Below, piece after piece: positions 29,362 through 29,383 of a DNA stretch of 44,071 nt. The notes under the pieces were generated by a model, which was not told the DNA's origin, ran no database searches, and worked only from the letters and a program-made list of their open reading frames with translations. The translations under genes and the position numbers were made by a program. Origin of the DNA: Escherichia phage vB_EcoS-UDS3lw; sequence record PQ658967.1; one strand, written 5' to 3'. Within the stretch, counting starts at the first letter, position 1, and each line of letters opens with the position of its first letter.

Positions 29362-29383
29362 TGCAACCAACCTATTGGTTGCA
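29362..29383. promoter_or_regulatory. inverted pair of TGCAACCAA half-sites (operator-like palindrome)
   Basis: TGCAACCAA-CCT-ATTGGTTGCA read directly, intergenic upstream of 28754-29308 gene. Confidence 0.55.

Follow-up and report, generated by a model that had tools for sequence, protein, structure and literature searches.

The site at positions 29362-29383 of Escherichia phage vB_EcoS-UDS3lw (PQ658967.1) carries two inverted copies of a short sequence, TGCAACCAAC-CT-ATTGGTTGCA, and raises the question of what this sequence is for and why it recurs across the genome. The window analysed here is the whole stretch of 44,071 bp, a complete Dhillonvirus genome (HK578-like siphovirus of E. coli) with 90-95% identity to many GenBank phages. 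A preliminary description had listed the motif at about 17 mostly intergenic positions and proposed that these were operators for a dimeric phage regulator, with a helix-turn-helix (HTH) protein as the candidate, or else a phage-specific promoter element. We found that the 10-bp box TGCAACCAAT is a real, strongly selected and previously undescribed family of cis-elements, which brings the theme of dispersed asymmetric operators into a virulent coliphage lineage. We give roughly an even chance to the reading that it would be a dispersed operator family with one protein monomer per asymmetric site, which also marks an origin-like region.

Abundance, placement and conservation of the box

The box has an invariant core, GCRACCAA, which is the most over-represented word of the genome. 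Allowing at most one mismatch, TGCAACCAAT has 18 matches against 3.1 expected, a number reached by none of 100 shuffles, and the exact 9-mer TGCAACCAA is present in 11 copies (0.35 expected). An unbiased k-mer screen returned ATTGGTTGCA as the top-enriched 10-mer (10 copies against 0.1 expected) and found 21 copies of the box core GCAACCAA (TTGGTTGC) where 1.8 are expected. Our working count is 21 box copies, which rises to 26 when GC[AG]ACCAA is counted; 18 of these 26 sites are in the non-coding DNA that constitutes 8.2% of the genome (binomial p = 2e-14). Recurrence beyond chance and a mostly intergenic location were therefore correctly recognised at the outset. Each position listed then does hold a copy, but the list was incomplete, having missed 71-80 and 604-613. 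Three copies are weak as 10-mers, with C or G at position 1 and C or G at position 10 (3103-3112, 37808-37817 and 37824-37833). The site at 29362-29383 is indeed an inverted pair, but with a gap of 2 bp between the 10-mers rather than the 3-bp spacer first reported.

This inverted pair is the only one of its kind: the other pairs are direct, with spacings of 12, 14, 16, 17 and 23 bp, and many copies stand singly. Given this variation in spacing and orientation, and the many single copies, we infer one monomer per box, and the dimeric regulator of the preliminary description is doubtful. The orientation of the box with respect to transcription is random (11 of 21 copies co-directional, p = 1.0). 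A function at the RNA level was considered and rejected, since the box has no matches in Rfam and its random orientation argues against one.

All 21 copies are found at orthologous positions in phages Oekolampad, WF5505 and Sodalis phage SO-1. Across these three relatives, identity is 617/630 (97.9%) in the box compared to 3865/4211 (91.8%) in the 40-bp flanks (Fisher p = 5e-10). Variation is limited to position 1 (T/C/G) and position 4 (A/G), and ACCAA is constant. Phage CHD5UKE2 has 20 copies, and among divergent metagenomic relatives there are 13 copies in 20 kb of contig L132 and nine in 6 kb of L134.

The box is also conserved across genera. Edwardsiella phage eiAU-183 (Eiauvirus) has DNA similarity to the window that is detectable over only part of a few genes, and its most enriched word is TGCAACCAAC. 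The core occurs 22 times there where 2.2 would be expected, and 16 of these sites are in non-coding DNA, which makes up 10% of the genome (p = 6e-12). Many occupy positions matching those in the window: nine follow the primase-helicase gene, two are paired in the 3' end of VRR-NUC, and the SSB and scaffold genes each have one upstream; four more precede the tape-measure gene. The box itself is absent from three Guernseyvirinae-type relatives, Salmonella phage SP-031, Enterobacter phage phiEap-2 and Hafnia phage TS33. These contain a one-base variant, CAGCCAACA(T), in four to six copies and both orientations, at the primase-helicase 3' end and just downstream, with few elsewhere. The family GCA[A/G]CCAA[C/T] is thus, judged from these genomes, older than Dhillonvirus. 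Its ancestral home appears to be the region close to the primase-helicase gene, because the variant is almost confined there in SP-031, TS33 and phiEap-2, and the comparison indicates a genome-wide spread in Dhillonvirus and Eiauvirus.

These data bear directly on the idea that the box binds nothing and is a passive relic, for example a boundary sequence left by or used for modular recombination. Copies are found at module boundaries, and that at 26467 borders a region which is replaced in this phage relative to its relatives. However, conservation is higher in the box than in its flanks, the box has been kept in genera whose DNA is otherwise almost without similarity, and ten base pairs are too short to drive homologous exchange, all of which makes this explanation scarcely credible.

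A scan of IMG/VR for box pairs gave mostly chance pairs and tandem repeats. One unrelated high-GC viral contig from it, L108 (IMGVR_UViG_3300038463_000167), has more than 10 copies of AATTGGTTGCATC, which resembles the box, in both orientations within a 400-bp non-coding stretch (2750-3160); the one neighbouring open reading frame (ORF) that was compared with the HTH protein showed no similarity to it.

Promoter copies and the origin-like region

Promoters were taken as sigma70 consensus matches from a scan, and nine of these have the right orientation for the neighbouring operon and share sequence with one or two boxes (Table 1). Of the 18 non-coding copies, 12 fall within promoter-like windows, where random placement in non-coding DNA would give 4.3 (p about 1e-4). 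Three classes of placement were seen: next to the -10 within the spacer, on top of the -35 (whose hexamer is then supplied by TTGCA of the box) and across -10/+1. Both promoter overlaps cited as examples in the preliminary description are genuine consensus matches, at 40695-40732 with the box in the spacer and at 3097-3134. The first of these is the strongest promoter match in the genome (11/12 consensus), and in the divergent relatives L132 and L134 two tandem boxes fill the spacer of the early promoter at this position.

Table 1. Boxes, predicted promoters, repeats and genes of the window
Feature	Position	Strand	Remarks
Box	40-49	-	Exact; + strand reads ATTGGTTGCAT; supplies -35 TTGCAT of P102 (45-81), rightward early genes; conserved in L001, L002, L127
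Box	71-80	-	TGCGACCAAT; over -10 TATATT and +1 of P102
Box	604-613	+	Exact; inside gene 417-686; conserved in relatives
P3298	3097-3134		TTGACT-18-CATACT
Box	3103-3112	+	CGCAACCAAC (TGCAACCAAC in relatives); right after -35 TTGACT of promoter for 3298-4440 and terminase/structural genes
Box	3126-3135	+	Exact; from last base of -10 CATACT, about -7 to +3, of P3298
Box pair	10361-10384	+	Two exact direct copies, 14 bp apart, between leftward Nmad5 gene (9574-10338) and rightward scaffold/capsid genes (10488 onward), a divergent region; in spacer and at -10/+1 of leftward TTGCAA-18-TATATT (P10338-left, 10360-10397); flank rightward-read TATAGT
Box	26467-26476	+	Exact; 17 bp 5' of lateral tail fibre start codon; other strand gives TTGCAA of leftward promoter-like site 26435-26471
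Inverted box pair	29362-29383		Overlaps -35 TTGCAA and spacer of leftward TTGCAA-18-TATAGT (P29308-left, 29347-29384), gene 28754-29308
Box pair	31029-31055	+	Two exact direct copies, 17 bp apart; read leftward, -35 TTGCAT, box in spacer, -10 TATATT (P30974-left, 31014-31050), gene 30516-30974
Box pair	33985-34006	+	Variants TGCGACCAAT, AGCAACCAAT in VRR-NUC 3' end; read leftward, TTGCTG-17-TATAGT (P33941-left, 33965-34001) upstream of gene 33768-33941
Box pair	37808-37833	-	CGCAACCAAG, GGCAACCAAG; either side of -10 of TTGACC-17-TAAATT (P37779-left, 37810-37846), promoter of Gp2.5-like SSB gene
Box	40710-40719	-	Exact; in spacer, 1 bp from -10 of P40686-left (40695-40732, TTGACA-18-TATTAT), leftward early/replication operon
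Palindrome	40877-40893		GTTGGT-CATTA-ACCAAC, two copies of the ACCAAC half of the box; between -10 TAGTTT (40870-40875) and ribosome-binding site of HTH/primase-helicase operon
Boxes 43523, 43577, 43612	43523-43621	-	GGCAACCAAT; right after primase-helicase stop codon, left of iteron/hairpin region
CGGGACA iteron array	43673-43951	+	Includes perfect 127-bp tandem duplication 43697-43951 with conserved hairpins
Box	44020-44029	+	GGCAACCAAT; right side of iteron/hairpin region, opposite orientation to the three left copies
Non-coding stretch	43512-44071 plus 1-101		About 660 bp
Leader CACCAAC(A/T)NGAGG(A)	82-101, 10339-10360, 40888-40906		Also L005 24050-24070 and L126 10724-10745
HTH protein	40907-41236	+	109 amino acids; variable N-terminus, long helix, invariant C-terminal HTH (residues 47-106)
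Primase-helicase	41247-43511	+	Common to every lineage with the box family; box clusters always adjoin its 3' end
Genes	102-28109	rightward	Small early-type, lysis, metallophosphatase-like, terminase, head, tail, tail fibre
Genes	28136-40686	leftward	Dam, Dcm, SNF2-type helicase, VRR-NUC, PolA, Gp2.5-like SSB, nuclease
Genes	40907-43511	rightward	109-residue HTH protein and 754-residue primase-helicase

Taken together, these patterns are consistent with a model in which TGCAACCAAT would be bound by one sequence-specific protein, one monomer per asymmetric 10-bp box, with copies acting in either orientation and either singly or as loosely spaced pairs. About two thirds of the copies would be at points where RNA polymerase touches a sigma70-type promoter (in the spacer near the -10, at the -35, or at -10/+1), so that occupancy should block or modulate initiation by the host RNA polymerase. 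The promoters bearing boxes would drive essentially every operon (early, replication and lysis/structural), and box occupancy might then constitute one genome-wide switch for the phage, as is the case for operators of P1 C1 or of L5-type repressors. RNA polymerase itself reads little sequence in the promoter spacer, and a conserved box in the spacer of a near-consensus promoter would most simply be a repressor site. The earlier proposal of an operator for a phage regulator is therefore, on sequence grounds, the best reading of a motif that is non-random, conserved, mostly intergenic and overlapping with promoters. Several points weigh against it. The excess of promoter overlaps (12 of 18) is partly circular because the box is itself -35-like, containing TTGCA, and the promoters are consensus predictions only. 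Moreover, the benefit to a virulent phage of a repressor over nearly all of its promoters is not obvious, and an activating or dual role for the box protein is also compatible with the data.

The same placements speak to the other function first proposed, in which the box would be an intrinsic promoter element read by RNA polymerase, either of a phage-specific class or needing a polymerase-modifying factor. The box holds a -35-like TTGCA in both orientations and several copies abut a -10 (TGCAACCAA-TATAGT, -TATTAT, -TAAATT), as this idea would have it. However, a -10 is situated 16-18 bp from TTGCA in only four or five of the 21 copies, orientation is random, positions range from -35 to +1, and one copy fills the spacer of a promoter in which both hexamers, TTGACA and TATTAT, are already in place. 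Among the window proteins that were scanned there was neither a sigma factor nor an RNA polymerase. The variable position, orientation and spacing rule out a promoter element of fixed geometry, and we regard any intrinsic promoter element as very unlikely.

Six boxes (43523, 43577, 43612, 44020, 40 and 71) lie in the non-coding stretch that spans the ends of the record, around its iteron/hairpin region, and boxes 40 and 71 form the first early promoter. The core of this origin-like region, bracketed by the boxes, is the CGGGACA array, a repeat family distinct from the box. A box cluster adjoining the primase-helicase gene in non-coding DNA was also found in eiAU-183, L132, L134, SP-031, TS33 and phiEap-2. 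Given that these six copies are at the ancestral location of the family, the protein that would act as the genome-wide switch probably acts at the replication origin or early control region too. The central array is lineage-specific (CGGACA in phiEap-2, GGTGCCA in L132) while the flanking TGCAACCAAT-family boxes and the hairpin persist, which suggests that two different factors read the two repeat families; the CGGGACA array may be the true initiator or terminase target.

Further features of these regions may be recorded here. The enriched repeat (A)GCGGGACA(G/A) forms two all-forward clusters, at 43673-43951 and at 15978-16209 (upstream of the tape-measure gene), both of which appear in the SO-1 GenBank record as similar repeat regions, A and B. 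After each iteron block there is a long GC-rich hairpin (cagtctttcagactagacgggggtc...cccctcgtctgagactg; 43778-43830 and 43905-43957), which is conserved in L132 and present in a diverged form in phiEap-2. In WF5505 (L002) the same early genes are found at both record ends (278-1832 and 45334-46888), a direct terminal repeat of roughly at least 1.9 kb, and this duplication suggests that the physical genome ends are in the non-coding region where the window starts. The conserved leader CACCAAC(A/T)NGAGG(A), just 5' of the start codons of the first genes in several operons, is found even in SP-031 and eiAU-183 and may be a translation-initiation or 5' untranslated region element that overlaps the ACCAAC half of the box. 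Finally, a terminator hairpin (31020-30998) is directly downstream of the leftward promoter 31014-31050, whose predicted start is inside the 5' arm of the hairpin (region 30998-31050, - strand); read-through transcripts would terminate here and those begun at this promoter would not.

Candidate readers

Within Dhillonvirus, the HTH protein named in the preliminary description could plausibly read the box. No change in its residues 47-106 is seen among 19 cluster representatives, even where overall identity falls to 57%, while the 46 residues before them vary without constraint. Pfam matches are to HTH_23, HTH_28 and Sigma70_r4_2, with no catalytic domain. An AlphaFold2 model (pLDDT 84) has a 59-residue helix (21-79) followed by helices at 84-91 and 95-107, making a tri-helical HTH. 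Foldseek matched the HTH head to those of LuxR/GerE, DeoR, IstA and sigma4 (root-mean-square deviation about 1 Å, probability >0.9, E about 1), and the whole chain weakly to the E-helix and HTH half of the Sin, Tn3 and gamma-delta resolvases (probability 0.2-0.35). The E-helix and HTH module of serine recombinases reads asymmetric half-sites of 10-13 bp. L132 and L134 have a full box where the window has the palindrome 40877-40893, between the -10 and the ribosome-binding site of the HTH operon, and such a box in the HTH gene's own promoter counts in favour of this protein. The homolog in CHD5UKE2 has an N-terminus that is replaced outright but retains the recognition helix, and for this reason the apparent 'HTH swap' in that phage does not discriminate.

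Outside the genus, the evidence runs against the HTH protein. Its homologs were found only in Dhillonvirus-like phages; eiAU-183 has the box 22 times, yet no HTH_23 homolog even at E<50. In eiAU-183 and in the Guernseyvirinae-type phages, the latter with the variant box, a Cro/C1-type protein occupies the syntenic position instead, and neither an exact box nor a variant was found upstream of the Cro/C1-type gene in SP-031, phiEap-2 or eiAU-183. The box family is older and more widespread than the HTH protein, which makes a general role doubtful. Overall, we view this protein, which weakly resembles the DNA-binding half of resolvases, as a possible reader whose chances fall somewhat short of even.

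A single ancestral reader must be common to all lineages, and this directs attention to the replication and packaging proteins, the only ones that all box-family phages share. Among them the primase-helicase is the obvious shared candidate, as its gene is adjacent to the box clusters, and a phage protein of the wider group, chiefly this one, is a similarly tentative proposal for the reader. Its C-terminus has a winged-helix-like sequence pattern and then a conserved acidic tail. Pfam gave no match for the C-terminus, a homolog search with the C-terminal fragment found nothing, and a single-sequence AlphaFold2 model (pLDDT 40) was unusable. The putative recognition helix differs among phages with identical boxes, which counts against the primase-helicase.

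A broader alternative, which we consider less likely than not, is that the boxes are primarily replication-initiator sites, on which the primase-helicase or a conserved partner would assemble at an origin beside its own gene, in the way of P4 alpha at ori/crr or DnaA at DnaA boxes. The promoter copies of Dhillonvirus and Eiauvirus would then be a secondary spread, through which the initiator tunes transcription or promoters serve as secondary helicase-loading sites. The distribution of the family fits this idea well: it clusters in both orientations at or downstream of the primase-helicase 3' end in every lineage examined (nine copies in eiAU-183), the variant CAGCCAACA is almost confined to that region in SP-031, TS33 and phiEap-2 and tracks phage lineage rather than host genus, and replication and packaging proteins are all that the box-family phages have in common. 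In addition, the second cluster upstream of the tape-measure gene in eiAU-183 gives a two-region layout like ori/crr of P4, and the winged-helix pattern at the primase-helicase C-terminus has counterparts at the same place in P4 alpha and pRN1 ORF904 (PMC2777425). Set against this, a separate and lineage-specific iteron array (CGGGACA here, CGGACA in phiEap-2, GGTGCCA in L132) is central in the same region and is a more natural initiator target, the winged-helix fold is a sequence pattern only, without a Pfam match, with a putative recognition helix that varies among identical-box phages, and an origin function leaves unexplained why about 15 copies are placed precisely on core promoter elements.

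The reader could in principle also be a host protein, which we think improbable. In its most specific form, to which we assign a slightly lower likelihood still, the box would be a site for a conserved Enterobacterales nucleoid-associated protein or global regulator, through which the phage couples its promoters and origin to the physiology of the host. Between two genera with only 35-65% identity in their orthologous proteins, the 10-mer hardly differs, no classical regulator is common to Dhillonvirus and eiAU-183, and host-factor sites commonly flank iteron origins. However, the box is not known to fit the consensus of any of the E. coli factors with which it was compared (DnaA, IHF, Fis, CRP, CytR, PdhR, NtrC, sigma54). 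Furthermore, the A-to-G variant is the same in Salmonella, Enterobacter/Klebsiella and Hafnia phages while the Edwardsiella phage keeps A; because the variant follows phage lineage and not host genus, a co-evolving phage protein is favoured over a host factor.

In phyletic profiling for a shared regulator, the only proteins whose occurrence followed that of genome-wide boxes were structural proteins, Dam, a DUF6378-like protein and a degenerate HNH-like one, with no classical DNA-binding regulator among them. The HNH-like protein (105 residues, 31056-31373, - strand) is annotated 'HNH endonuclease' but has no Pfam HNH match, a partial PHROG match and a degenerate HNH motif (…VVCRQRTPGHYGNRMSNL…). 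Wherever the boxes are genome-wide (Dhillonvirus, eiAU-183) it is conserved and in synteny; in SP-031 it was not detected. Its stop codon is followed directly by a box pair. A 57-residue CxxC…CxxC zinc-ribbon protein with a basic tail ('Lar-like'; 33768-33941, - strand), 51-57% identical across all lineages, is possibly a small DNA-binding protein; its gene comes directly after the promoter with the box pair inside the VRR-NUC 3' end. Two other proteins were rejected as readers. The first is Nmad5 (nucleotide-modification-associated domain 5), as SO-1 is without it but keeps the boxes; its gene (9574-10338, - strand) lies within the rightward structural module and is present in eiAU-183 and absent from SO-1. 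The second is the gp46-like protein (39997-40686, - strand), for which sequence-specific binding is unlikely as it is of low complexity, K/A/P- and acid-rich, and without structural relatives. This first gene of the early leftward operon encodes basic repeats of the AKKAPAKGK type that alternate with poly-acidic stretches, has a conserved part starting at M61, and could be a histone-H1-like or DNA-mimic protein.

Genome context, significance and known systems

The gene map of the window was carried over from phage Oekolampad via tblastn. No integrase, partition or CI-type repressor genes were found in the transferred annotation or in protein scans of the window, and the genus is lytic according to the literature searched. 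Two rightward ORFs (25197-25499 and 25499-26173; region 25197-26475) have no counterpart in Oekolampad, WF5505, SO-1 or eiAU-183 and stand in place of two leftward genes of the relatives, of which a 16-codon remnant persists at 26365-26412.

The box is described nowhere in the literature searched: full-text matches to the 10-mer had listed titles that were all unrelated to phages, and papers on Dhillonvirus, the HK578 group and eiAU say nothing of a promoter or repeat motif. Few coliphages are isolated as commonly as Dhillonviruses (>150 related records), which are used in phage therapy, defence-system and engineering studies, and nothing has been published on their transcription control or replication start. 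The box is ordinary in kind, but it is a clean and experimentally tractable case: a single box on essentially all promoters would provide an experimental handle to a master regulator, and box mutations could yield promoters of adjustable strength for engineering. The genomes compared also form a series, rare in being so readable, in which a genome-wide regulon grows from a local binding-site cluster. What would be surprising, if borne out, is one factor that links the start of replication to transcription across the genome. We think it rather unlikely that one box family does such double duty, with an origin-marking protein also on nearly every promoter of a virulent phage. If true, one factor would run both processes, either as a phage-encoded 'DnaA-like' master regulator or because promoters double as helicase-loading sites, and the system would have spread from an origin-only ancestor, still seen in the Guernseyvirinae-type phages, to the whole genome in Dhillonvirus and Eiauvirus.

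How, then, does the box compare with known systems? DnaA boxes are asymmetric 9-10-bp sites with a monomeric HTH reader, which occur in either orientation and cluster at the origin, and through further copies dispersed among promoters the initiator also regulates transcription. No other system compared is as good an analogy for a site that serves at an origin as well as in promoters, but the box is unrelated in sequence to TTATCCACA, and an initiator as its reader is hypothetical. The MotA boxes of T4, a virulent phage, are likewise asymmetric (about 9 bp), recur at many promoters and have a monomeric phage protein as their reader. However, they replace the -35 at a fixed position (about -30) and orientation, whereas the box described here varies in both and is found together with good -35 hexamers. 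Phage P4 has short iterons in two separate regions. P4 alpha and pRN1 ORF904 are primase-helicase polypeptides with a C-terminal winged helix (PMC2777425), and pRN1 co-transcribes its replication gene with the gene of a small DNA-binding repressor upstream of it, and has an essential region 3' of the replication gene (PMC4234260, PMC2777425). The order is the same here as for pRN1 orf56/orf904 and P4 alpha, with a small HTH gene, the primase-helicase and then a repeat-rich non-coding region. The helicase of this phage differs from that of P4 alpha in being of the RecA/DnaB-like AAA_25 type rather than SF3, and its winged helix is predicted from a sequence pattern; furthermore, most boxes are at promoters far from the putative origin, where a second iteron family is central.

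The sites of the P1 repressor C1 are found in both orientations, some of them paired, over the promoters of many unrelated operons, and are bound by one monomer per site. There are 22 C1 operators with a 17-bp consensus, ATTGCTCTAATAAATTT (PMC8546580). The likeness lies in an asymmetric operator dispersed over the genome in many copies (21-26 here) and over promoters of unrelated operons. By contrast, P1 is temperate and C1 maintains lysogeny, while the Dhillonvirus genus is reported to be lytic, and neither an integrase nor a partition gene is listed in the annotations examined. The box is also shorter (10 bp against 17 bp) and its sequence is unrelated. Neither a C1 nor a gp71 homolog turned up in Pfam and PHROG scans of the window proteins. 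Cluster A mycobacteriophages (L5, TipsytheTRex) have more than 20 asymmetric 13-mers, operators or 'stoperators', read by a monomeric repressor (PMC9283540). Stoperator orientation correlates strikingly with the direction of transcription and a reversed site abolishes repression (PMC9283540), whereas the orientation of the box is random (11/21); the cluster A phages are also temperate, and their repressor is unrelated and has two DNA-binding domains. The box system belongs to none of these families, from which it differs in sequence, candidate proteins and lifestyle, but by analogy the P1 C1 operators and the cluster A operators/stoperators appear to be functionally its closest counterparts.

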